In this document: one piece after another, positions 23,561-64,000 of the stretch
Position numbering within the stretch: the stretch's first letter is position 1
How the letters are laid out: each line of letters begins with the position of its first letter
Assembly (NCBI RefSeq): GCF_963921235.1
Contig: NC_086097.1
Coordinates: 151,654,001 to 151,718,000, forward strand
Length of the DNA stretch: 64,000 bases
Direction: 5' to 3'
Source of the DNA: Mobula hypostoma
Taxonomy: Eukaryota
Position numbers and translations under genes: made by a program
Notes under the pieces: model-generated
What the model saw: only the letters and a program-made list of their open reading frames with translations
Told to the model about the DNA's origin: nothing
Database searches by the model: none

Positions 23561-24822
23561 CCCTGCATTCCCTTCTGCATCAAGGGGGCGGATGTGCAAG
23601 ACGTCCAGGACTACAGATACCTGGGAACTCACCTGGACAATAAACTGGACCGGACTAAAAATACAGGGGCTCTGTACAAGAAGGGACAGACCTGAATGTC
23701 CTTCCTGAGGAGGTTCCGGTCATTCAATATAGAAACATAGAAACATAGAAAATAGGTGCAGGAGTAGGCCATTCAGCCCTTCAAGCCTGCACCGCCATTT
23801 ATTATGATCATGGCTGATCATCCAACTCAGAACCCCACCCCAGCCTTCCCTCCATACCCCCTGACCCCCGTAGCCACAAGGGCCATATCTAACTCCCTCT
23901 TAAATATAGCCAATGAACTGGCCTCAACAGTTTCCTGTGGCAGAGAATTCCACAGATTCACCACTCTCTGTGTGAAGAAGTTTTTCCTAATCTCGGTCCT
24001 AAAAGGCTTCCCCTCTATCCTCAAACTGTGACCCCTCGTTCTGGACTTCCCCAACATCGGGAACAATCTTCCTGCATCTAGCCTGTCCAATCCCTTTAGG
24101 ATCTTATACGTTTCAATCATATCCCCTCTCAATCCTCTAAATTCCAACGAGTACAAGCCACACCAATACCTTACCCCCAATACCGTGTGCTTTAAGTTTG
24201 CACACTAATCTCCTGTGTGGGACCTTGTCAAAAGCCTTTTGAAAATCCAAATATACCACATCCACTGGTTCTCCCCTATCCACAGTACTTTGCTGCAGAT
24301 GCTCTACAACTCAATGGTGGCCAACGTTCTATTCTATGCTGTAGTCTGCTGGGGCAGCAGGGTGAGAGCAGTTGACACCAAGAAGATCGATAAGCTCGTC
24401 AGGAAGGCTGGTTCTGTTCTGGGGGTGGAACTGGATTCCCTGGTTGTTGTGTCTCAGAGAAGGATGCCCCATAAGCTATGGAGCATTATGGACAATCCCT
24501 CTCACCCCCTCCATGACATACTGGACAAACAGAGGAGCATCTTTAGTAACAGACTGATTCCACTGAGGTGCACCACTGAACGACACAGGAGATCCTTTCT
24601 CCCTGTGGCTATAAGACTCTACAACTCCTCCTCCTTAAGTATACGGTTTCATTGCACATCTGTATCTAGCACTATTACTTTTTAATGCACATTTTGTATT
24701 TTTTTCATACCTCAATGCTTACATTTTGTATTTTAAAATATATATTTCTGACTGAGTAAACTTGCAATAATAATCTCCTTCGGAATAAGTAAAATTTTAT
24801 CATAACTTATCTTATTTTATCT
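23561..24822 (+). mobile_element. Rex1 LINE 3' portion, interrupted by CR1
   Basis: YRYLGTHLDNKLD..NT.ALYKKGQ..FLRRFRSFN, then after the CR1 insert STLLQMLYNSMVANVLFYAVVCWG...RRSFLPVAIRLYN, ending in a (ttatc)n-like tail. Confidence 0.9.
23729..24283 (-). mobile_element. Young CR1, 5'-truncated with internal deletion
   Basis: (atagaaac)n tail. Nearly identical to 48760-48885 plus 49550-49980, with the intervening part missing. Confidence 0.95.
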
Positions 24823-25299: not shown

Positions 25300-28061
25300 T
25301 AGAACATAGAACATAGAACATAGAATAGTACAGCACAGTATAGGCCCTTCGGCCCACAATGTTGTGCCGACCCTCAAACCCTGCCTCCCATATAAGCCCC
25401 CACCTTAGATTCCTCCATATACCTGTCTAGTAGTCTCTTAAACTTCACTAGTGTATCTGCCTCCACCACTGACTCAGGCAGTGCATTCCATGCACAAACC
25501 ACTCTCTGAGTAAAAATCCTTCCTCTAATATCCCCCTTGAACTTCCCACCCCTTACCTTAAAGCCATGTCCTCTTGTATTGAGCAGTGGTGCCCTGGGGA
25601 AGAGGTGCTGGCTATCCACTCTGTCTATTCCTCTTATTATCTTGTACACCTCTATCATGTCTCCTCTCATCCTCCTTCTCTCCAAAGAGTAAAGCCCTAG
25701 CTCCCTTAATCTCTGATCATAATGCATACTTTCTAAACCAGGCAGCATCCTGGTAGATCTCCTCTGTACCCTTTCCAATACTTCCACATCCTTCCTGTAG
25801 TGAGGTGACCAGAACTGGACACAGTACTCCAAGTGTGGCCTAACCAGAGTTTTACAGAGCTGCATCATTACATCGGAATTCTTAAACTCTATCCCTCGAC
25901 TTATGAAAGCTAACCCACCATAAGCTTTCTTAACTACCCTATCCACCTGTGAGGCAACTTTCAGGGATCTGTGGACATGGTACCCCCAGATCCCTCTGCT
26001 CCTCCACACTACCAAGTATCCTGCCATTTACTTTGTACTCTGCCTTGGAGTTTGTCCTTCCAAAGTGTACCACCTCACACTTCTCCGGGTTGAACTCCAT
26101 CTGCCACTTCTCAGCCCACTTCTGCATCCTATCAATGTCTCTCTGCAATCTTTGACAATCCTCTACACTATCTACAACACCACCAACCTTTGTGCTGTCT
26201 GCAAACTTGCCAACCCACTCTTCTACCCCCACATCCAGGTCGTTAATGAAAATCACGAAAAGTAGAGGTCCCAGAACAGATCCTTGTGGGACACCACTAG
26301 TCACAATCCTCCAATCTGAATGTACTCCCTCCACCACCATCCTCTGCCTTCTGCAGGCAAGCCAATTCTGAATCCACCTGACCAAACTTCCCTGGATCCC
26401 ATGCCTTCTAACTTTCTGAATAAGCCTACCGTGTGGAACCTTGTCAAATGCCTTACTAAAATCCATATAGATCACATCCACTGCACTACCCTCATCTATA
26501 TGCCTGGTCACCTCCTCAAAGAACTCTATCAGGTTTGTTAGACACGATCTGCCCTTCACAAAGCCATGCTGACTGTCCCTGATCAGACCATGATTCTCTA
26601 AATACCTATAGATCCTATCTCTAAGAATCTTTTCCAACAGCTTTCCCACCACAGACATAAGGCTCACTGGTCTATAATTACTCGGACTATCCCTACTACC
26701 TTTTTTGAACAAGGGAACAACATTCGCCTCCCTCCAATCCTCCGGTACCATTCCTGTGGACAACGAGGACATAAAGATCCTAGCCAGAGGCTCAGCAATC
26801 TCTTCCCTCACCTCGTGGAGCAGCCTGGGGAATATTCAGTCAGGCCCCGGGGACTTATCTGTCCTAATGTATTTTAACAACTCCAACACCTCCTCTCCCT
26901 TAATATCAACATGCTCCAGAACTTCAACCTCACTCATATTGTCCTCACCATCATCAAGTTCCCTCTCATTGGTGAATACCGAAGAGAAGTATTCATTGAG
27001 GACCTCGCTCACTTCCACAGCCTCCAGGCACATCTTTCCACCTTTATCTCTAATCGGTCCTACCTTCACTTCTGTCATCCTTTTTTTCTTCACATAATTG
27101 AAGAATACCTTGGGGTTTCCTTTACCCTACTCACCAAGGCCTTCTCAGCCCCTTCTTGCTCTTCTCAGCCCCTTCTTAAGCTCCTTTCTTGCTTCCCTAT
27201 ATTCCTCAATAGACCCATCTGATCCCTGCTTCCTAAACCTCATGTATGCTGCCTTCTTCCACCTGACTAGATTTTCCACCTCACTTGTCACCCATGGTTC
27301 CTTCACCCTACCATTCTTTATCTTCCTCACTGGTACAAATTTAACCCTTACATCCCGCAAGAGATCTCTAAACATCGGCCACATGTCCATAGTACATTTC
27401 CCTGCAAAAACATCATCCCAATTCACACCCGCAAGTTCTAGCCTTATAGCCTCATAATTTGCCTTTCCCCAATTAAAAATTTTCCTGTCCTCTTTGATTC
27501 TATCCTTTTCCATGATAATTATTAGGCCAGGGAGCAGTGGTCACTGTCCCCCAGATGCTCACCCACTGAGAGATCTGTGACCTGACCCAGTTCATTACCT
27601 AGTACTAGATCTAGTATGGCATTCCCCCTGGTCGGCCTGTCCACATACTGTGACAGGAATCCATCCTGGACACACTTAACAAACTCTGCCCCATCTAAAC
27701 CCTTGGAACTAATCAGGTGCCAATCAATATTAGGGAAGTTAAAGTCACCCATGATAACAACCCTGTTATTTTTGCACTTTTCCAAAATCTGCCTCCCAAT
27801 CTGCTACCAGAGGGCCTATAGAATACCGCCAGTAGAGTAACTACTCCCTTCCTGTTCCTGACTTCCACCCATATTGACTCAAAATCCTGCTACATTGCCC
27901 ACCCTTTCTGTAGCTGTAATAGTATCCCTGACCAGTAATGCCACCCCTCCTCCCCTTTTTCCGCCCTCTCTATCCCTTTTAAAGCACTGAAATCCAGGAA
28001 TATTGAGAATCCATTCCTGCCCTGGTGCCAGCCAAGTCTCTGTAATGGCCACTACATCATA
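25300..28061 (-). mobile_element. Young CR1, 5'-truncated, near-complete ORF2 with frameshifts
   Basis: ORFs 27522-27785, 27145-27513, 26836-27093, 25939-26811 and 25374-26027. The RT carries [10 protein letters not shown], but the catalytic motif reads FADS instead of FADD. (agaacat)n tail. Confidence 0.97.
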
Positions 28062-35697: not shown

Positions 35698-36435
35698 ATA
35701 TACATATCTTTTGCTTGCATGGTGGGTGGTGGGAATGCTGATGCTTTATGTTAGAATAAGTGGGGGATGGGGAGGGGGGAGCATTGATACTGCTTGAGCG
35801 TGGGAGGGGAGCAGGGGGCTTTAGTTTTTATGTATTTTTCTGTCATTCATTTTTGGGAGTTATTCTTCTGTTTCGAGGATGTCTGCAGAGAGTAAGAATT
35901 TCAGGTTGTAAATAAAAGTGCCACATCCAAGTTTGCAAACCCATCTGGTTTCTTATGCCATCTGTGATAAGGTAGCTAGTGATCTAGACCACATGGAAGC
36001 TGAAGGAATTCTTTCTAAGATTGAGTGGAGTCCATGGGCAACACCAGTGGTCCTAATAGCCAAGAAGAATGGGTCTGTCAGGATCTGTGGTCATTTTGAG
36101 GTCACTGCCAACCTAGTGCAGAAAGCAGATCAAAGCCTTCTGCCCAGGATAAAGGATATCTTTTCAAACTTTTCTGGAAGGAAATACTTCAGCACAGTGG
36201 ACTTAGCTAAGGCCTACCTACAGATGGAGATAGGAGAAGAGTCTAAAGTTCTTCTCACCATAAACACTCACAAAGGGCTTTATCACTATAATAGGCTTAT
36301 TTTTGGAGTAGCATCTGCACCTGCACTCTGGCGGAAAGCCATAGACCAGGTACTGCAAGGCTGCCCAGTCACGCAGTGTTACTTGGTTGACATCCCTGTT
36401 ACCGATAAATATGACAAGGAACAGCTCTAAAATCT

Positions 36436-36736
36436 CATCCATTAGTCTTGCGAGACCATGGATCTGCACCTGCAAAGTCTTCATTCTCCAAGGCGCAGGC
36501 CTGGGCAAGGTTGTATGGAAGACCAGCAGTTGCCCATGCTGCAAGTGTCCCCTCTCCACGACACCAATGTTGTCCAAGGGAAGGGCATTAGGACCCATAC
36601 AGCTTGGCACCAGTGTCGTTGCAGAGCAATGTGTGATTAAGTGCCTTGCTCAAGGACACAACATGTTGCCTCGGCTGGGGCTCGAACTCACAACCTTCAG
36701 GTCGCTAGTCCAAAGCCTTAACCACTTGGCCACGTG
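36436..36736 (-). mobile_element. tRNA-derived CORE-like SINE
   Basis: Minus strand: A box TGGCCAAGTGG, B box GAGTTCGAGCC, CORE-like GTGTCCTTGAGCAAGGCACTTAA, 3' end GATCCATGGTCTCGCAAGACTAATGGAT. The Gypsy RT rejoins across it. Confidence 0.85.
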
Positions 36737-37090
36737 AGACTGTGTTAAAAAGATTAGAAGACTATGGGCTCAGAGCACGAAGAAACAAGTGGGAGTTTTT
36801 AAAACAAATGTCACTTATTATGGTCACATCATTGAAGCACAAGGATTACACAAGTGTGCCGAGAAAATTCAAGGAGCGGTAGAAGCCCAAAGCCAAAAGA
36901 TGTGTCACAATTGTGGTCCTTTTTAAGATTTGCCAATTACTATAACAGGTTCCTACCAATCCTGCCTACTGTGCACCACCCCTTGAACTCATTACTATAG
37001 ATCAGGAAGAAATGGTAATGAACTAAGCAGTGTGAGGTGACGTCCCAAAATGTCAGACACTGTATTCACAAATTATGATACACATCATCC

Positions 37091-37222
37091 TGCTGAAGGG
37101 TTTCAGCTCAAAACGTTGACTGCACTCTTTTCCCAGATGCTGCCTGGTCTGCTGAGTTCCTCCAGCATTTTGTGTATGTTGCTCAGATTTCTATCATCTG
37201 CAGATTTTCTCTTGTTTGTGAC
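37091..37222 (+). mobile_element. 132-bp Penelope-like terminal insertion beginning at a decayed hammerhead
   Basis: (c)tgctgaagggtttcagctcaaaacgttgactg...gatgctgcctggtctgctgagttcctccagc. TSD cacatcatcc / cacatcaccc at 37081-37090 and 37223-37232. Confidence 0.85.
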
Positions 37223-38951
37223 CACATCACCCAATGAAGCTTGCCTGTAATACCTCACCTTGTGGTATAAGCGCAGTCATGTCACATGCCAGGAGTAATG
37301 GAAATGAACGCACCATAACCTTCGTATTATGATCTCTTACCTCTGCAGAAAGAAGTTACCAACAGATTGATAGAGAGGCCTTGAGTCTGGTTTGGAGTGT
37401 AAAACATTACAACCAGTAATTCTATGGGAGAGAGTTTACCCCTGTTACTGATCATCAACCATGAGTGCCAATTTTCAATCCACAGAAGGGTGTTCCACTA
37501 ACAGCAGCAGCATGATTACAGAGATGGCCATTGTTTCTTGGAGGACAACATTACAAGATCAAATTCAAGATGATAACTTGTCATGGAAATGCTGATGGAT
37601 AGTTCCATTTACTCTTGGAAAAGGACGTACCTGAAAAGTTTACTAAAGAGGACACTCTTTTTGACATATTCTCTCTAACACAAATTGAACATCACCATTG
37701 TTACAGCAGCGATGATCCAAAGGGAAACCAGAAAAGACCCCCACACTGTTTTAGGTCTACATGAAACCTCAAAATGGCTGGAATGTGCAGCAGAAACTCC
37801 AGTTACCCCATTTTTTACCTGCACCAGGATGAATTTGCCCTTAATGGTGGTTGTCTTAGGTGGGGATTGAGAGTTGCTGTACCATCTAATCTGAGAGCTA
37901 GAGTGATGAAGGAGCTGCTGGTCATTTATGCATAGTCAAAATGATAGTTTTGGCTCAAGGAGTTTTCTGGTGGCCTGGGATGGATCAGCAGATCGAGCAG
38001 CTTGCCATGCACTGTTCAGGATGCCAACATGTCCAGAAGTTGCCCAGAGCTGCAACTCTCCAACCCTCGGAATAGCCTGCATTGCCCTGGCAACGGATTC
38101 ATGTGGGTTTTGCTGTATCATCCATGGGCACAAATTCTGGTAGCAGTGGATGATCTTACATAGTGGCCAGAAGTCTCCACTACAGACTTGCACACTGTTG
38201 ATGTGTTGAGAAGCCTCTTCTCAAGGACTGGTGTTCCAGAACACTTAGTTAGTGACAATGGTGCTCAGTTTGTCGTGGAACAGTTTCAGTCATTCTTGAA
38301 ACTGAATTTAATAAGACATATTAAATCTGCACCATACCATACTCTACATATGGCTTAGTGGAAAGGTTTGTCCAGAGTCTAAAGAATGCACTGTGAGCAA
38401 CATTCTCAGAACACACTACACTAACACTTTATCAGAAGCTCGCCAATTTCCTCCTTGTATATCGCAATGCAGCACATTCCACAACCACCAACTCAGCAGC
38501 TATGCTGTTCCTGGGTTGTCCCTTGCGCTCATGCCTGGATTGCCTCTATCCCAGTTGTCAGAAGGATTGTGCAGGACAGAGAGCTGAGACAATGTGAGGA
38601 CTCCTCAAAGAAGGAGGTTCGATGTTTCACTCCAGGGCAAGTAGTCCTGACAAGGGACTACAGAGGTGATCAAAAGGATTAAGAACAGAACTGCTCCACT
38701 CTTCCACAGTGAAGATTGCATTTGCAGTCATCTGGAGACAACATATTGATTAGTTAAGCAGAGCAGATTCAATTGTTAGAGAAGATTGTCGTCTAGAGCT
38801 GTCAGAACCGTTTCCTGCAGTCCCAGAGTCAACTCCTAGAACCAGACACAGATTTTAAGTTTGGCCTGCTTCCTACATTTTTTCTACTTGTTACAAATCG
38901 ATAGCCCTGCCTACAACAATTATCCGAGGCATGAATGCTACTAAGAGGCAA

Positions 38952-42184: not shown

Positions 42185-44200
42185 AAATGGCTTGGTGATA
42201 GGAGACAGAGGGTAGTACTGAAGGACTGTTTATCTGAATGGAAAAGTGTGACCAGTTGAGAACCATTGGGGCTAATGTTATGATATATACTGCCTTTCAA
42301 ATGTGTTCACCACCCCCCTTGGAAGTTTTCATGTTTTATTGCTTTACAACACTGAATCACAGTGGATTTAATTTGGATTTTTTGACACTGATCAACATGA
42401 AAAAAACCTCTTTTGTGTGAACGTGCAAACAGAGCTCTACAAAGTGATTTAAATTAATTATAATTATTAAACACATAATAATTGATTGCCTAAGTATTCA
42501 TCCCCTGCAAGTCAGTATTTAGCAGATGCACCCTTAGCAGCATTATAGCCTTGAGTCTGTGTGGATAGGTCTCTATCAGCTTTGCACATCTGGATACTGC
42601 AATCTTTCCCCATTCTTTAAAAAAAACTGCTCAAGCTCTGTCAGATTGCATGGGGATCATGAGTGAACAGCTCTTTACAAGTCCAGCCACAAGTTCTCAA
42701 TTGGATTGAGGTCTGGACTCTGACTCGGCCAGGACATTAACTTCATTGTTTTTAAGCCATTCATGTATCGCTTTGGTTTTATGCTTGGGCTCATTGTTTT
42801 GCTGGAAAACAAATCTCCCAAGTCACAGTTTTCTAGCAGACTGTAACAGGTTTTGCTCCAGGATTTCCTGGTATTTTGCTGCATTCATTTTACCGTCTAC
42901 CTTCACAAGCCTTCCAGGGCCTGCTGCAGTGAAGTATCCCTACAGCATGATGCAGCCACCACCATGCTTCACAGTAAGGGTGGTGTGTTTTTGATGTTGA
43001 ACGGTGTTTGGCTTACACCAAACATAGTGCTTAGCCTAATGGTGAAAAAGCTCAGTTTTGGTTTCATCAGACCATAGAACCCTCTTCCAGCTGACTTCGG
43101 TGTCTCCCGCATGTCTTCTGGCAAACTCCAACAGAAATTTCATGTGAGTTTTTTTCAACAGTGGCTTTCTTTTTGCCACTCTCCCATAAGCTGTGACAGG
43201 TGTATGCGCAGTCTCTCCCATCTCAGCCACTGAGGCTTGTAACTCCTCCAGAGTTGTCATAGGTCTCTTGGTGGCCTCCCCCATTAGTCCCCTTCTTGCA
43301 TGGTCTCTCAGTTTTTGAGGATGGCCTGCTCTAGGCAGATTTAGAGCTGTGCCATATTCTTTCCATTCCTTGACGATTGACTTAACTGTACTCTAAGGGA
43401 TATTTATTGACTTGGAAATTTTCTTGTATTCATCTCCTGACTTGTGCTTTTGAATAACCTTTTCACAGAGGGAGTGCTCTTTTGTCTTCATGGTGTAGCT
43501 TTTGCCAAGATACTGATTCACCAGCATATGGACCTTCCAGATATAAGTGTTTTGTTTCTCTCATCAATTGAAACAGCTTAACTATACATGATAATCTCCG
43601 TTTAACTAATTATGTGACTTCTAAAAACAATTGGCTGCACCAGTGTTGATTTAGTGTGTCATATTAAAAGTGGTGAATACTTATACAGTCAATTATTTTG
43701 TGTTTTATATTTGTAGTTAATTTAGATCACTTTATACAGGTCTGTTTTCACTTTGATATGAATGAGCCTTTTTCTGCTGATCAATATCAAAAAACCAAAT
43801 TAATTTCACTGTGATATTCAATGTTGTAAAACAATAAAACATGAAAACTTCCAAAGGGAGGATGAATACTTTTTATAAGCACTGTATATCAGAGATCATA
43901 CCATATATCATATGATATATATATATTTGTTTGTTGCTGACATGAATATTAGTGGAATTTTAGAGAGGGAGGCTGGTTATCTAAGGATACAGAGGGACGT
44001 AGGTAAGCTAGAACGTTGGATGGAGTCATGGCAGATGAAATAGAATCGAGATCAAATTGAGATTCTGCATGCTAGTTACCTAACACTGGTCAGATATGTA
44101 CAGTAAATGTCAGGGATCTTAGAAGTGTTGATGTGTCCTGGGCTGCAAGTTTGTGGCTGGCTGAAAATGGTGAACAGATGGATAAGGTCATTAAGAAGAC
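42185..44200 (+). mobile_element. Old CR1 RT fragment split by Tc1
   Basis: WLGDRRQRVVL...WKSVTS before 42286, and IQRDV.KLE.W..SWQM after 43886. Confidence 0.7.
42288..43884 (-). mobile_element. Tc1-family (IR/DR type) DNA transposon, full length, defective transposase
   Basis: TIRs of about 220 bp and TA flanks. ATG 43491 MKTKEHS..., [52 protein letters not shown]. Confidence 0.95.
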
Positions 44201-45261: not shown

Positions 45262-45740
45262 TGATGGAAAAACAACGATACCGCCTGTCTTCCCTATATT
45301 TCCACAGTTTTTAAAAAGATTACCAAGATCCTGAAGAAATACCAGATTAATACCACCCACAAACCCATAAGAAAAGCTCAAATCACAGCTTATGTGGATC
45401 AAAGATGACCTGGGACTCAGGACGGCTGGAGCTGTGTATCAGCCGGACGGGACACATGGTGGAAACCCGCATCAAGGAGCACAGGAGGTGTATCCATTCA
45501 GGATATCCAGAGAAATCAGTGGAAACAAAACATTGCATTCGCAATAACCATCGGATTGATTTCGACAGCACAAAACTACTACGCTGCACCAATAGCTTTT
45601 GGGACCACCTGGTGAAGGAAGCCATAGAAATAAAGTTAGTGGAAAAAGATTTTAACAAAGACGAAGGTCTCGCTCTGAGTAAGAACTGAAATTTGATGGT
45701 AAGTAAGGTGGGACAGTGGAAACCTGATTTGCTGGAAGAT
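45262..45740 (+). mobile_element. Penelope-like element (Poseidon-type) thumb and GIY-YIG endonuclease region, decayed
   Basis: ACLPYIS...KILKKYQI...KPIRKLKSQL...RTGHMVETRIKEHRRCI...HRIDFD...VKEAIEIK...FNKDEGLALS. Confidence 0.85.
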
Positions 45741-45754
45741 GTTAGTCTGTTTTG

Positions 45755-45885
45755 CAGCATCTGTGGAACAAGAAGCTAGTTACTGTTTCAGTTCAGAGGA
45801 AGGTTCCCTGACCTGAAGTGTTGACTTGCTTTCCTCTCCACAGAAGTTCTGTTCAGTGCTTTTGTGTTTTTTTTTGGCAGATACT
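45755..45885. mobile_element. Decayed PLE fold-back terminal repeat
   Basis: ctgtgga...ttcagttcag and ctgacctgaa...tccacag form imperfect inverted arms. Confidence 0.55.
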
Positions 45886-46724: not shown

Positions 46725-47150
46725 TGAGAGTCTGCAGATGCTGAAATCTGGAGCAATGGAGTATGCGTTGGAGGAAGTCAATGAGGAAAATTGACAGTTA
46801 ATGTTTTGGGTGGAGACGCTTCATCTGGACTGAAAGATAGATGGAACGTAGCCAGTGTGAAAAGGTGTAGAGCAGGAGAGAGCAAGAGGCAGCAGGTAAC
46901 AGCTGGATCTAGGTGAGGAGGAGTGACAGGCGGACGCGAGAGAGGAAAGTGGAAATAGTGCTAGAAGCTGACTAGTGATAGGTGGAAGTTACAAAGGATT
47001 GAAGAAGATGGAATCTGATAGGAGAGGAATTCGGAGTATACATTCAAGGTAGGGAGGTGTGGAGGACAACTGGGAAATTGTGGAGGTGAACCAGTGGGAG
47101 AAGTGTGTGGGTTCAAGTCATGTGGAGTGCATGGAACAAGGGAAAGAAAC
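46725..47150 (-). mobile_element. Penelope-like 3' terminal repeat, decayed
   Basis: ctgcagatgctg...; minus strand cagtccagatgaagcgtctccacccaaaacattaactg is a hammerhead remnant, followed by purine-rich DNA as at 63150-63340. Confidence 0.65.
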
Positions 47151-48286: not shown

Positions 48287-48378
48287 GTACGCCTGCAGGT
48301 GTTGGAAATCCAAAGCAACACATATAAAATGCTGGGGGATTCATGTTTTGGGCCAAGACCCTTCTTCAGGACTAAAGG
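48287..48378 (-). mobile_element. Short PLE terminal fragment with hammerhead remnant
   Basis: Minus strand agtcctgaagaagggtcttggcccaaaacatg, in which GAAA has decayed to AAAA. Confidence 0.7.
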
Positions 48379-48562: not shown

Positions 48563-49980
48563 GAGAGAGAAACCGGGGAATTATAGGCCGGTTAGCCTAA
48601 CGTCGGTGGTGGGGAAACTGCTGGAGTCAGTTATCAAGGATGTGATAACAGCACATTTGGAAAGCGGTGAAATGATCGGACAAAGTCAGCATGGATTTGT
48701 GAAAGGAAAATCATGTCTGACGAATCTCATAGAATTTTTTGAGGATGTAACTAGTAGAGTGGATAGGGGAGAACCAGTGGATGTGGTATATTTGGATTTT
48801 CAAAAGGCTTTTGACAAGGTCCCACACAGGAGATTAGTGTGCAAACTTAAAGCACACGGTATTGGGGGTAAGGTATTGGTGTGGGTGGAGAATTGGTTAG
48901 CAGACAGGAAGCAAAGAGTGGGAATAAACGGGACCTTTTCAGAATGGCAGGCGGTGACCAGTGGGGTACCGCAAGGCTCAGTGCTGGGACCCCAGTTGTT
49001 TACAATATATATTAATGACTTGGATGGGGGTGCAGCATCTCCAAGTTTGCGGATGACACAAAGCTGGGTGGCAGTGTTAGCAGTGAGGAGGATGCTAAGA
49101 GGATGCAGGGTGACTTGGATAGGTTGGGTGAGTGGGCAAACTCATGGCAGATGCAATTTAATGTGGATAAATGTGAAGTTATCCACTTTGGTGGCAAAAA
49201 TAGGAAAACAGATTATTATCTGAATGGTGGCCGATTAGGAAAAGGGGAGGTGCAACGAGACCTGGGTGTCATTATACACCAGTCATTGAAAGTGGGCATG
49301 CAGGTACAGCAGGCGGTGAAAAAGGTGAACGGTATGCTGGCATTTATAGCGAGAGGATTCGAGTACAGGAGCAGGGAGGTACTACTGCAGTTGTACAAGG
49401 CCTTGGTGAGACCACACCTGGAGTATTGTGTGCAGTTTTGGTCCCCTAATCTGAGGAAAGACATCTTTGCCATAGAGGGAGTACAAAGAAGGTTCACCAG
49501 ATTGATTCCTGGGATGGCAGGTCTTTCATATGAAGAAAGACTGGATGAACTGGGCTTGTACTCGTTGGAATTTAGAAGATTGAGGGGGGATCTGATTGAA
49601 ACGTATAAGATCCTAAAGGGATTGGACAGGCTAGATGCGGGAAGATTGTTCCCGATGTTGGGGAGGTCTAGAACGAGGGGTCACAGTTTGAGGATAGAGG
49701 GGAAGCCTTTTAGGACCGAGGTTAGGAAAAACTTCTTCACACAGAGAGTGGTGAATCTGTGGAATTCTCTGCCACAGCAAACTGTTGAGGCCAGTTCATT
49801 AGCTATGTTTAAAAGGAAGTTAGATATGGCCCTTGTGGCTACAGGGGTCAGGGGGTATGGAGGGAAGGCTGGGTTCTGAGTTGGATGATCAGCCATGATC
49901 ATAATAAATGGCGGTGCAGGCTCGAAGGGCCGAATGGCCTACTCCTGCACCTATTTTCTATGTTTCTATGTTTCTATGTT
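48563..49980 (+). mobile_element. Young CR1, 5'-truncated (RT to tail)
   Basis: ORFs 48606-49223 and 49103-49879 with one frameshift near 49025, KFADD motif, (tttctatg)n tail. Confidence 0.97.
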
Positions 49981-50299
49981 GAATACCTGACACTGAGGAT
50001 TATGCTGTGAGATGTTTGGCGCTTCGGACAGCTCATCATGATGTTGCATTAACCCTTTGTGCTTTATTGTTGACTTAAAGCATAATGCATTTCAAAACCA
50101 GTGCCTGAGCCATGGGCATGCTCAAGCTGGCTGGTTGTGCCATCCTGTCAACATTATTTCAATAATGGCTCAGAAATCCAGTTGGATCTAATGCCAACAC
50201 TGGGACTATGTTGGGCGCTGTCCTCAATTGCTGATACTCAAGAGTGTGTGTATCAGGTAGTAGAACATAACACAAGCAAATGCGTTCAATAGAATATCC

Positions 50300-50772
50300 A
50301 TAGAACCATACAAAATTATGAAAGGGATAGATAAGGCAGAGGTAGGAAGGTAGTTTACACTGGTAAGTGAGACTAGAACTATGGTATATAGCCTCAAGAT
50401 TCAGTAGGGTAGATTTAGGGTGGAGATGGAGAGAAACTGTCTTTCCTAGAGAAAAGTGAATATGTAGAATTCGCTGCCCAGGGAAACAGTGGAGTAGGGG
50501 TTACCAACCTCTTTTATGCCTTGAACCAATAACATTAATCAAGGAGTCTGTGAACCCCAGGTTGGAAACTCCTTGAGTAGAGGTTAGCTTATTAAATATA
50601 CTTAGCGCACAGTTGGATAGATTTTTACATAGTTGAGGAATTAAGTATTATGGGGATGTCAGGTAAGTGGAAATGAGTCTACAGCTAGATCAGCCATGAT
50701 CTTATTGAACGGTGGAGTAGGCTTGATTGACCAGATGATCTATTGTCCTATTTCTCATGTTCTTATGTTCTT
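50300..50772 (+). mobile_element. CR1 3' end containing a MITE
   Basis: ETRT..YSLKI...NSLPRETVE motif and gttcttatgttctt tail. Confidence 0.85.
50495..50574. mobile_element. 80-bp hAT/Charlie-like MITE
   Basis: TIRs taggggttaccaacct / aggttggaaactcctt. 8-bp flanks cagtggag and gagtagag match at 6/8. Confidence 0.75.
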
Positions 50773-51132
50773 GTCCAGCTGAAGGGTCCAGTGACTGACC
50801 ATTTATTAGACAGCCATGATCGAAGTAATCTATTTATTGTAAGATCTGTTCTTTGAAAGTATTACTACCACCAGCAACCTCGTCTTTCATTGGGTTAATT
50901 TTGGAGAAAGGCAGACCAGTATGAAATGCTGTTAACAGCTAAAGATTCTGGAAGAGATTTGTAAGGGAAAGCTGTTAGTAACTGTGGCCAAAGACAATTA
51001 GCAGCCACAGTATTAGAAGCAAGGAACTGCCATCAATCTCATTGGAAGCTCACTGTGTATATCTGGCATTCACTGGGCTGACAGTTGTAGAATGTTTAAT
51101 GGGAAAATATAAGTAAATCTTGGGCTGTAAAT

Positions 51133-51525
51133 CTTACTCTTTGGAGAGAAGGAGGATGAGAGGAGACATGATAGAGGTGTACAAGATAATAAGAGGAATA
51201 AATAGAGTAGATAGCCAGCACCTCTTCCCCAGGGCACCACTGCTCAATACAAGAGGACATGGCTTTAAGGTAAGGGGTGGGAAGTTCAAGGGGGATATTA
51301 GAGGAAGGTTTCTTACTCAGAGAGTGGTTGGTGTGTGGAATGCACTGCCTGAGTCAGTGGTGGAGGTAGATACACTAGTGAAGTTTAAGAGACTACTAGA
51401 CAAGTATATGGAGGAATTTAGGTGGGGGAGTATATGGGAGGCAGGGTTTGAGGGTCGGCACAACATTGTGGGCCAAAGGGCCTGTACTGTGCTGTACTTT
51501 TCTATGTTCTATGTTTTATGTTCTG
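51133..51525 (+). mobile_element. Young CR1 3' end
   Basis: Near-identical to the reverse complement of 25300-25695. Confidence 0.95.
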
Positions 51526-54583: not shown

Positions 54584-55591
54584 TGGACTTCTGGTCAAGG
54601 TGGCACCTTCATACAATGCTCCTTTGGTCAATGTCTTCTGGATAGATCATGAAACCATATATTTCACTTTTATGTCTTTTTACATTTATATTTTACCTTG
54701 TATATGATTCTAGAACTGTTGGTGCCCGTGATTTGCTGTCTGGAGAGCATCTGGGTGTTTCAACGCTCTGCAGTTTCAAATAGTATTCTGGAAGGCAGAG
54801 GCAGTGTATGTGAAACTCAAGGCGGGCAGGCTTCAGGAAGAAATGCAAGCTGAGTTTGACTCCATTTTGCCATTTAAAGCTTCTGTTGTTCGATGACTAA
54901 AGTGACGAGGGAGATTGAAACGTTGAGGTGAATTACAGAAGGTGAGCACTAGCTGCCTGTCTTTTGATCACTCTGCTACTAGAGAGGGGAGAGCCTGCCA
55001 CTGTGCCTGGAGAATGTTACCCGGGTTTTATGTGTTTTGGTTGTGGGCTTGGACTATTGACCCATTTGTCAGTCTTATAGTTTTTTATATTCTGTGTTTC
55101 TTGCCTGAACTTTCTCATTTTTTTTTGTGCAGGAAGGGGATTTGGGGGTCAATGTGCCTATACCGTTTTGTTCTATTTTTTTGCAAAAGGGGGGAATTTG
55201 TGGTGATGTGCCTGTTCTGTTTCTGTTCATATTTTTGTGTGAGGAGGAGGGATTTGGGGGTTGATGTGCCCATTCTGTTTTTGTTCGTTTTCTTGGACAG
55301 GAAGGGAGATTTGGGGGTTAATGTGCCTGTTTTGTTTTTGTTCGTTGTTTTAGACGGGAGGAGGGATTTGGGGGTTGAAGTGCCCATTCTGTTTTTGTTC
55401 GTTTTTTTTGGACAGGAGGGGGGATTTAGGGGTTAATGTGCCTGCTCTGATTTTGTTTGTTCTTTTTGTGCAGTGGGGTGGGAATTGGGGTTGACAATCA
55501 TGCTGCCTTTCTTTTCTTTCTTGGTTTCATGGCTACCTGGAGAAGAAGAATTTCAGAGTTGTATACTTTGATAATAAGTGAACCTTTGAAC
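54584..55591 (+). mobile_element. Non-autonomous Rex-tailed retroposon carrying a minisatellite
   Basis: Head acttctggtcaaggtggc and tail tactttgataataagtgaacctttgaac. No recognisable protein. Confidence 0.5.
55117..55500. repeat. Minisatellite, about 57-bp unit, about 7 imperfect copies
   Basis: Recurrent gggatttgggggt(t/c)(a/g)atgtgcc...ttttgttcgtttt near 55137, 55193, 55249, 55306, 55362, 55421 and 55481. Confidence 0.9.
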
Positions 55592-60806: not shown

Positions 60807-61015
60807 GCAACATGCACAACACGCTGGAGGAACTCAGCAGGTCGGGCGGCATCCGTGGAAACGATGAGACAACATTTCGGGATGGAACCCTTCATCAGGA
60901 CGAAGGATAGGGTTCCTGAAACGTTGACTGATTGTTTCCACAGATGCTGCCCAACCTGCTGAGTTCCTCCAGTGTGTTGTGAGTGTTGCTTTGACCCCAG
61001 CATCTGCAGAGTATT
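60807..61015. mobile_element. PLE-derived fold-back element with 76-bp inverted arms
   Basis: Arms 60807-60882 and 60914-60989 are 65/76 identical. Hammerhead core ctgatgaagggttccatcccgaaa on the minus strand. Confidence 0.9.
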
Positions 61016-62495: not shown

Positions 62496-63054
62496 TATAT
62501 ACTTTAAAATGATCACTAAAAGGATATTTAACAGAAACAACTGTTACAATATGGAATTCTCAAGTCAAAGGTGGAGGTGGATAATTAATTACCTTTAAAA
62601 GAGATGTGTAAGTATAGTAAAAAATTTCTAATGGATTCAACGGTAATCACTCACCTTTACTTAGGTTTCTTGAGGGCAAGAAGATATATAATGTGTAATA
62701 AAGTTCAAAATTTCTCTGGTCTGGGTGCTCTTTCATGTTTATTTCACAATGGAAGGGTTAAGGCAGCATCTGGCCGCTGCATATCTGAGACAAAGACGGT
62801 TTTGTACTTGCATGTCATGAGATCCATTTCTTGTTATTTCTTCACCTCAATCTAGAGCTGACAAGATATTGCTGACTATCCCTTTGAGCTCAGTTCCTTG
62901 GATGGATGCATTATGGTTTTGCTTTTACATTGTAAAATATTTCACAATGTTTATTGTAGTAATAATATCTCTGGCCATCTTCACAATTCACAAGACAAAA
63001 AAGGACAGGCGACCAAGAAGCTTCTCATTTAAGTGCACATGCTCTGAAATGAAA

Positions 63055-63706
63055 AGCAACACACAAAATGATGGAGGAACTCAAAAGGTCAGGCAGCATC
63101 TATGGAAATGAATAAACAGTCGATATTTCGGGCGAGACCCTTCTTCAGGACTGAAAAAGAAGGGGGAAGATGCCAGAATAAAAAGGTGGGTGAGGAGTAT
63201 GAGGATAACTAGAAGCCAGGTGAGTAGGTGAGAGGGAAGGAGGAAGGGACTCAAGGGGATGTAATAGGCAGGTGAAATGAGGTAAGAGTTTAGAATTGGG
63301 AATACAAGTAGAGGGAATGGGGAGGGTTTTTTTTATATATCAGAAGGAATTATCGATATTCATGCCATCAGATTAGAGGCTACCCTGAAGGACGATAAGA
63401 TGTTGCTCTGCCCTGAGGGTGGCCTCATTGTGGTATAAGAGGAGGCTGTGGACCGACATGTCAGAATGGGAGTGAGAATTAAAATGTTTGGCCACTGGGA
63501 AGTTCTGCTCTTGGCTGATGGAGTGAAGTTGCTCGCTCAAGTGGTCCTCTAATTTACGATGGGTCTCAGCAACCTCAAGGAGGCTGCATTAGGAGCATTG
63601 GGCGCTATAGACGACCCCCGCAGATTCGTAGGTGAGGTGTTGCCTCACCTGGAAGGACTGTTTGGGGCCTGAATGGAGTTGAGGTAGGAGATGAATGAAC
63701 AGGTGA
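63055..63706 (-). mobile_element. Penelope-like element (Neptune-type): GIY-YIG endonuclease remnant plus 3' terminal repeat
   Basis: Minus translation FQVRQHLTYESAGVVYSAQCS*CSLLEVAETHRKL...FPVAKHFNSHSHSDMSVH...GMNID ends at 63340. A related upstream piece (FHRDRS) lies at about 63890-64000. Confidence 0.85.
63117..63153 (-). ncRNA. Type I hammerhead ribozyme (minimal, PLE-associated)
   Basis: CAGUC-CUGAAGA-A-GGG(UCUCG)CCC-GAAA-U-AUC-GACUG: stem I CAGUC/GACUG, catalytic core intact, cleavage triplet AUC. Confidence 0.8.
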
Positions 63707-64000
63707 CTTCCTCTTGCTTTTGTAATTTTGTAGGAAATTGAGAAGCCCCTGAATTTTGCACAGCAGGTTTTAGGAGCTTTGGTTCAGGACTACTGATGTG
63801 TTTTAAAAGCTTCAAAAGGCTCTTATAATTACCCAGAAATGATGAACTCCTTTGTTTAACTAGTCTTTCTATTAAATGAGGGCTAAGTGCTGTGAGGAAG
63901 ATTAGTAGAGAGAGATGAACGGTCAGAGGAATCGCAGAAGGAGCGATCCCTGTGGAAAGTCGGGGAGTGAGATAAAGATATATCTGATGTTAGCAACCCC

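Follow-up and report, generated by a model that had tools for sequence, protein, structure and literature searches.

A minimal type I hammerhead motif behind a broken Penelope-like element in the ray Mobula hypostoma, predicted to cut RNA weakly or not at all

A 64-kb stretch of Mobula hypostoma DNA (64,000 nucleotides of contig NC_086097.1, hereafter the window) carries on its minus strand, at 63153-63117, a 37-nt hammerhead motif (copy A) that reads CAGUC CUGAAGA A GGG UCUCG CCC GAAA U AUC GACUG. The locus raises the question of whether this is a ribozyme still able to cut RNA or the fossil of one left behind by a mobile element. Letters and place had been given in a first-pass annotation of the sequence, and both matched exactly. 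The motif is composed as follows:

63153-63149, minus strand: 5' strand of stem I
63148-63142, minus strand: CUGAAGA (C3 to A9, N7 = A)
63141, minus strand: extra A after A9
63140-63130, minus strand: stem-loop II
63129-63126, minus strand: GAAA (G12 to A15.1)
63126-63123, minus strand: loop-less palindromic stem III, AUAU (U15.2, A16.2 and U16.1 at 63125-63123)
63122, minus strand: C17, with the predicted cut at 63122|63121
63121-63117, minus strand: 3' strand of stem I

Both reading and folding bore out the perfect 5-bp stem I, made of five Watson-Crick pairs, and the two conserved boxes that had been claimed. When isolated, stem II either closes a 3-nt loop with 4 bp, one of them G.U, or has 3 bp around a 5-nt loop. 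Folded alone (5-bp stem I plus stem II), copy A reached -10.0 kcal/mol (z -1.86), and 8 of 200 shuffled sequences were equally stable. Copy A was the sole match in the 64-kb window to a relaxed minimal-hammerhead descriptor with a stem I of at least 3 bp; in 300 block-shuffled windows, such a match was found in 11, and one with a 5-bp stem I in four. The core pattern, on the other hand, was matched four times in the window versus 0.00 times expected from 100 shuffles. A chance origin of the motif was rejected on these counts, and membership of copy A in a family makes it negligible.

Copy A shares the features that define the minimal type I hammerheads of Penelope-like elements (PLEs), namely a CUGANGA ... 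GAAA ... NUH core, a stem I of 3-5 bp, a stem II closed by G10.1-C11.1, an extra base after A9, and a palindrome at 15.1-16.1 with no loop III or a palindromic one, here AUAU. Its position is also the expected one, on the same strand and in sense behind a GIY-YIG remnant; the distance of about 190 nt previously reported proved to be 187 nt from the TGA at 63342-63340. The earlier assignment to this hammerhead type behind a PLE GIY-YIG domain thus agrees with the published consensus (PMC4209133). The Rfam hammerhead models, proposed earlier as a check, gave no match at gathering score over the 64 kb, and none of the three Rfam matches at E ≤ 10 in a local search of 62900-63500 was a hammerhead. 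Such a miss would be unsurprising, given that the motif has neither loop III nor tertiary loops. Copy A is a minimal type I hammerhead of the published PLE kind, located in the 3' pseudo-LTR (pLTR) of a broken element, of which the following parts were recognized:

63880..63999, minus strand: weak collinear trace of pre-linker sequence (local score 44, matched or exceeded in 6 and 8 of 300 shuffles)
63670..63740, minus strand: weak trace, lying in another frame, of the RT-EN linker, with a frameshift before the endonuclease (local score 39, matched or exceeded in 4 and 3 of 300 shuffles)
63346..63672, minus strand: pseudogenised GIY-YIG endonuclease of a PLE, from a PLE profile and 63% identity to Mobula hypostoma protein P0002
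63154..63339, minus strand: pyrimidine-rich 3' UTR or pseudo-LTR body
63151..63175, minus strand: splice-acceptor-like polypyrimidine tract and CAG, the CAG being the first three bases of stem I
63045..63116, minus strand: 3' part of the pseudo-LTR and tail, common to sister copies, with single-copy flank below ~63044

What had been described as a GIY-YIG open reading frame is a pseudogene, since the frame that ends at the TGA holds two more stops (63591-63589 and 63375-63373). In addition, YIG reads EVA, and the conserved catalytic Arg and the first His were lost; both Cys and the second His of the CCHH motif, intact in P0002, were kept. Pfam reported no GIY-YIG domain in the read-through of the window frame (P0001) and a sub-threshold one in P0002 (E 0.00046, 20.9 bits vs 22.6), but the domain could be identified despite this weak Pfam signal because a custom PLE profile, built from 30 of the best ~40 relatives picked for endonuclease coverage, matched 63672-63346 with 94 bits (iE 2.4e-28). 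Read-through residues 110-219 matched two proteins among 41 candidates, P0002 (63% identity, E 3.4e-31) and a Hypanus sabinus protein (49% identity), both of them RT-linker-GIY-YIG fragments; P0002 itself has 18,649 relatives at E ≤ 0.001.

A CX2-5CXXC linker, described in PMC8557442 as a mark of Neptune and Nematis that is absent from Penelope/Poseidon, was found in 28 of the 30 chosen relatives, including the two closest (P0002 and P0003). Because close relatives carry this linker, the element likely belongs to the Neptune clade, Nematis sharing the mark. The linker cysteines of copy A's own element were mostly lost, and no reverse transcriptase was found in the part of the element that lies within the window. 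With its stops, frameshift and lost YIG and Arg, the element lacks the single intact RT-EN frame between two pLTRs of an autonomous PLE. The trace at 63670..63740 was missed by the profile and that at 63880..63999 was non-significant by it. Given such weak collinear traces up to 64000, a 5' truncation at ~63720 is uncertain; their arrangement suggests that the element may run past the window edge, with an insertion in it. The ~140 bp between the two traces (63880-63740, minus strand) match nothing else in the window and are possibly a later insertion in the linker.

The tract that precedes the CAG of stem I contains 18 pyrimidines in 20 positions, with no nearer AG. An acceptor context this good was found at 3 of 2180 minus-strand YAG sites, that of copy A included, in a 3' UTR that is pyrimidine-rich throughout. 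In Drosophila virilis Penelope, the end of an intron maps to the 5' end of helix I (PMC4209133), and pLTR introns were proposed to be widespread among PLEs (PMC8557442). The candidate acceptor of copy A parallels the D. virilis intron end in its overlap with stem I.

Sister copies of the motif were searched for within the window, where five were recovered by BLAST or by a mismatch scan and a sixth (~45790) by eye:

60807..60904, minus strand: copy B, core complete and stem I broken, with AUGU as stem III and N17 = U
60891..61010, plus strand: copy C, 5' core truncated, stem III ACGU
37088..37204, plus strand: copy D, A6 and G12 changed, stem III ACGU
46789..46867, minus strand: copy E, U4 and G12 changed, stem III ACAU
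48338..48376, minus strand: copy F, G12 changed, N7 = A as in copy A, stem III ACAU
45789..45850, plus strand: a copy similar to the sisters but more decayed, with changes in the core and TG at the CpG of stem III (by eye, unscored)

Two weaker BLAST matches (at 1.2 kb and 54 kb; E 0.011), tail-only or doubtful, were left out. The ACGU palindromes reported earlier for two sister copies were recovered as ACGT at 37113-37116 and 60921-60924. Altogether, the stem III CpG site of the window copies reads CG twice, CA twice, TG twice and TA once, and G12 is A in three. Copy A had been singled out as the only potentially active copy of the window. It is indeed the sole one whose core is full and whose stem I is also intact, but copy B, on the same strand 2251 nt downstream, also has a full core (60898-60871) next to its broken stem I. 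Retrozyme status of copy A was considered and rejected, the nearest same-strand copy lying at that distance with unrelated DNA between. Copies B (left) and C (right) form an inverted pair of pLTR 3' fragments with adjacent 5' ends at 60807-61010, an arrangement known for PLEs (PMC8557442), and similar opposite-strand joints were seen among other family copies in the contig mapping.

To place copy A in its family, contigs of four sequencing runs, from organisms A-D (4 of 24 listed), were placed on 62940-63300 at 80% likeness. The numbers of contigs placed were 60,354, 56,304, 60,706 and 45,512, with single-copy depth in the flank below 63040. Summed contig depth is not a copy number and is biased towards the letters of the window; each of the four organisms clearly has a very large family. 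Scans for patterns of the pLTR 3' part returned no stretch in viral, metagenome and prokaryote collections. Contig depth was about tenfold higher over the tail than over the hammerhead. The difference could have pointed to copies that break off at the cut site; this reading was rejected, since contig depth inflates in branched repeats and the loose ends there run into hammerhead sequence. No pile-up of contig ends was listed at the cut site, and the six window copies listed all start elsewhere.

The insertion of copy A is common to organism B, in which one contig runs across the flank and the end of the element and differs at 2 of 155 letters. Probably orthologous as well are a piece of low depth in organism C, with 7 differences over 133 letters, and indels of low depth in organism D. 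The insertion is therefore old, its orthology being observed in organism B and inferred for C and D. Majorities among the loose ends give the family N7 = U, one more loop II base and ACGT in stem III, and copy A departs from the family majority at these three places.

Does copy A still fold and cut? It has no stem III as a monomer, its AUAU being loop-less. An AUAU duplex is worth +1.6 kcal/mol versus -1.7 for ACGU, so weaker by 3.3, and the predicted energy of a double hammerhead of two copies (-15.6 kcal/mol) is less favourable than that of two monomers (-20.0) or of a rival dimer fold (-24.3). In addition, nine bases of the 3' UTR (63164-63156) can form a rival 9-bp hairpin with the core (63146-63138). 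With 0-5 upstream bases, the share of stem I is 0.82-0.98, and the hairpin takes the core once at least 15 are included; the hammerhead-compatible share in four flank contexts was 0.011, 0.128, 0.104 and 0.099. One central pair of this hairpin, 63158 with N7, joins two positions at which copy A differs from the family majority. These nearest-neighbour energies leave aside tertiary contacts, Mg2+, help from proteins and co-transcriptional folding.

Published minimal hammerheads need a dimer or a protein. That of Schistosoma mansoni was inactive as a monomer and of low activity as dimers and trimers (PMC4209133), one of nine Xenopus dimers was cleaved (bioRxiv 10.64898/2026.07.22.740005), and the hammerhead of Anolis Poseidon_Ac (PAc) needed the PLE protein for cutting, with no RNA-seq ends found at its site (Frangieh et al. 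2024, PMC11167929). With this need, no monomer stem III, a weak AUAU and a competing hairpin, the activity of copy A is doubtful. The predicted folding energies are unfavourable to self-cleavage as a dimer or with protein, the prediction for copy A at this locus is weak RNA cutting or none, and the case for cleavage of a minus-strand transcript by it is, in these models, weak.

Decay of the family was then followed at its CpG sites. G12 is the general base of the hammerhead. Its change to A made up 36, 33, 37 and 37% of the depth in organisms A-D, compared with 32-33% for C11.1 to U, 29-34% for G1.1 to A and 24-28% for C17 to U; a CpG change in the loop accounted for 10-18% (gapped reads only). 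This comparison covers CpG sites only, among the 40 rows listed, in a mapping that favours window letters. The loss of G12 at least as often as of other CpG sites (33-37% vs 24-34% for C17, G1.1 and C11.1) argues against selection on inserted copies, so that conservation of the core over its flanks, a check suggested by the first-pass annotation, went against selection at the readable sites. The copies decay without visible selection at these CpG sites.

These results favour, with a probability of about 0.72, the reading that copy A is the hammerhead of a dead element whose core was likely kept by chance while its family decays, and whose predicted cutting is weak or absent. While the element was active, a partial-tandem transcript, as published PLE work suggests, would have carried two pseudo-LTRs, whose loop-less ACGU palindromes would pair to give a shared 4-bp stem III. 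This double hammerhead, probably helped by the element's own RT-endonuclease protein, would cut after C17 in each half. Copy A would have been inserted before at least organisms A and B split; two transitions, one at the CpG and one ordinary, would then have changed its ACGU to AUAU by drift. Lacking a tandem partner, its stem III weakened and its core open to a rival hairpin, it would now be a fossil.

A rough neutral model, in which a non-CpG divergence of 8-13% was assumed rather than measured, gives 1-6% of intact-looking copies and a 6-30% chance of at least one among six. Copy A keeps three of the four family CpGs and all core bases despite a heavily decayed endonuclease, which makes it a 1-in-20 to 1-in-100 copy under this model and counts against chance survival.

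The stem III palindrome of copy A had been said to survive two changes, and two CpG transitions had been offered as another route to the same letters. That route needs correction, for CG to TA takes one CpG and one ordinary transition, the first change destroying the CpG. Selection for the palindrome is not supported either, since the window sisters hold the single-step CpG intermediates (ACGT twice, ACAT twice, TG twice). It is nevertheless possible, though rather unlikely, that AUAU was inherited from an active sub-lineage as a compensatory swap for ACGU, the palindrome having been selected in a master element while copy A itself is just as dead. AUAU is a natural state in 5 of the 56 published minimal hammerheads, two coelacanth families included (PMC4209133), and the N7 = A common to copies A and F means that sub-lineages may exist.

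Contig depth bears on the same question. In stem III, C15.2 held 44-54% of the depth and G16.2 46-56%, and the shares of U15.2 and A16.2 summed to 0.99-1.01 in all four runs. A sum close to 1 implies that TA is about as common as CG in contig depth, which would allow up to roughly a quarter of the copies for a TA sub-lineage; the read tables, however, carry no linkage. Neutral drift would be expected to give 2-4% TA per copy in the rough model. A model of mapping bias put the true TA share at 0.2-27%, depending on the decay and mapping bias assumed, and fits both drift and an AUAU subfamily. In several settings, drift with mapping bias gave the observed sum if true decay was 75-80% and TA made up 2-6%. 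Against a sub-lineage, too, the loose-end majorities read ACGT, both single-step intermediates occur among the window sisters, and copy F itself has ACAU.

A composite of several of these ideas appears improbable, in which a ray hammerhead of the Neptune type is gated by splicing, with the 3' splice site at the opening bases of stem I as in Drosophila Penelope, copy A belongs to an AUAU sub-lineage that keeps the dimer palindrome by compensatory change, and those copies that are intact, out of many thousands in ray genomes, cut host transcripts through neighbours such as copy B. If such splice gating were true, splicing of the pLTR intron would remove the core-sequestering pyrimidine tract and rebuild stem I.

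Slightly harder to sustain is the proposal that copy A is live in its host, and maybe kept for it: a transcript of 63.1-60.9 kb (or two transcripts paired in trans) would use copy B as catalytic strand and be cut in copy A, after the AUC. The full core of copy B on the same strand would make this conceivable, as would its AUGU, which makes all four stem III pairs with AUAU, the pairing of its 5' strand with the 3' strand of copy A, the one that is cut, at three core-proximal stem I positions, and an insertion old enough to be common to organism B. But stem I would comprise only these 3 bp plus mismatches, the reverse core (A on B) is mismatched at its second pair, the stem III duplex costs +1.6 kcal/mol, and copy B has its own inverted partner in copy C. 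Published minimal hammerheads cut poorly even as close tandems. Moreover, no host exon was found among 164 stop-free frames compared with Pfam (25 long frames that had been selected, plus 139 frames of 62-99 aa from outside the self-repeats), which gave mobile-element domains only, plus three sub-threshold matches at E ~0.001-0.002.

That the ancestral motif was mainly a pseudo-LTR signal in hammerhead form (a splice acceptor, a protein-binding or a folding element) is most improbable, for although the acceptor-like CAG overlaps stem I as in D. virilis Penelope (PMC4209133), the Anolis hammerhead was not needed for insertion in vitro, which its mutants left unchanged (PMC11167929), and Naiad PLEs thrive without canonical hammerheads (PMC8557442), the full catalytic core is retained across PLE clades together with the extra base and the palindrome (PMC4209133) and the Anolis motif does cut with protein, with rescue of cutting by C3G/G8C (PMC11167929).

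A dead-element hammerhead of this kind compares well with published systems. Minimal hammerheads were described in metazoan PLE pLTRs by Cervera and De la Pena (2014, PMC4209133), who proposed dimer cleavage through the palindrome. Like copy A, they have a U-rich 5' flank, a short stem I, CUGANGA with an extra base, G10.1-C11.1, GAAA, a loop-less palindromic stem III and NUH, and lie 3' of 5'-truncated or broken PLEs in thousands of dispersed copies. Loop-less AUAU occurs there in Nematostella 1, Schmidtea, Caenorhabditis remanei and Latimeria 1 and 2, as read from the PDF text of the 56-row alignment, in which the GAAA column is detached. The AUAU variant is thus already published for other animals, and copy A adds a ray member to a known kind. 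It differs from that set in being a decayed insertion rather than a family consensus, in coming from a cartilaginous fish, a group absent from the 56 rows, and in its stem II of 3-4 bp, compared with 7-8 bp in S. mansoni.

With Neptune and Nematis (PMC8557442), the locus shares a C-terminal GIY-YIG with CCHH, the linker in close relatives, a pLTR with a hammerhead, and the inverted 5'-truncated pair at 60.8-61.0 kb, whereas the window holds no RT for copy A and its own linker cysteines are mostly gone. Like copy A, PAc has a vertebrate PLE pLTR hammerhead built of stems I and II alone, with a tail region behind it; it differs in belonging to the Penelope/Poseidon clade without the linker zinc finger, in an ORF that starts inside stem II, and in having been shown to cut with protein. 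Non-LTR retrozymes likewise carry a type I hammerhead derived from PLE pLTRs (PMC7229834; bioRxiv 10.64898/2026.07.22.740005), and those with such hammerheads were reported for one chondrichthyan genome in the 2026 preprint, but they are tandem arrays of at least two units, whereas copy A is single and joined to an endonuclease remnant. No description of batoid PLE hammerheads was found in the literature searched, most subscription journals and Repbase/Dfam being outside its scope.

Copy A alone matters little, its modest value lying in a very large ray family with a CpG-rich hammerhead. To our knowledge, every PLE-rich genome has hundreds to thousands of minimal hammerheads. The ray family could test covariation of stem III in master lineages, a possible start of insertions at the cut site, which would be a genomic trace of in vivo cleavage, and the sharing of a stem I splice acceptor by distant PLE clades.

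Other mobile-element remains were observed in the window. A weak GIY-YIG-like fragment of another PLE family (45435-45599, plus strand; profile iE 0.008) lies ~190 nt before the decayed hammerhead-like copy at ~45790, with a short reverse-orientation tail piece at ~45755. A broken LTR-retrotransposon-like stretch with RT (Pfam RVT_1) and integrase (rve) at 35900-38400 (plus strand) is interrupted by copy D at 37088 and by another insert near 36440-36740. Young LINE pieces at 23722-24289, 25301-25692 and 48753-51524 are 95-98% identical, inverted and ~25 kb apart, and RVT_1 and APE endonuclease fragments are numerous across the window. A DDE_3 transposase fragment at 42678-42884 (minus strand, E 4e-6), with inverted repeats at 42281-42500 and 43674-43891, is a probable DNA transposon remnant. 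Finally, self-BLAST showed short tandem-like repeats at 55115-55494, with 56- and 112-nt offsets and ~75-80% identity.
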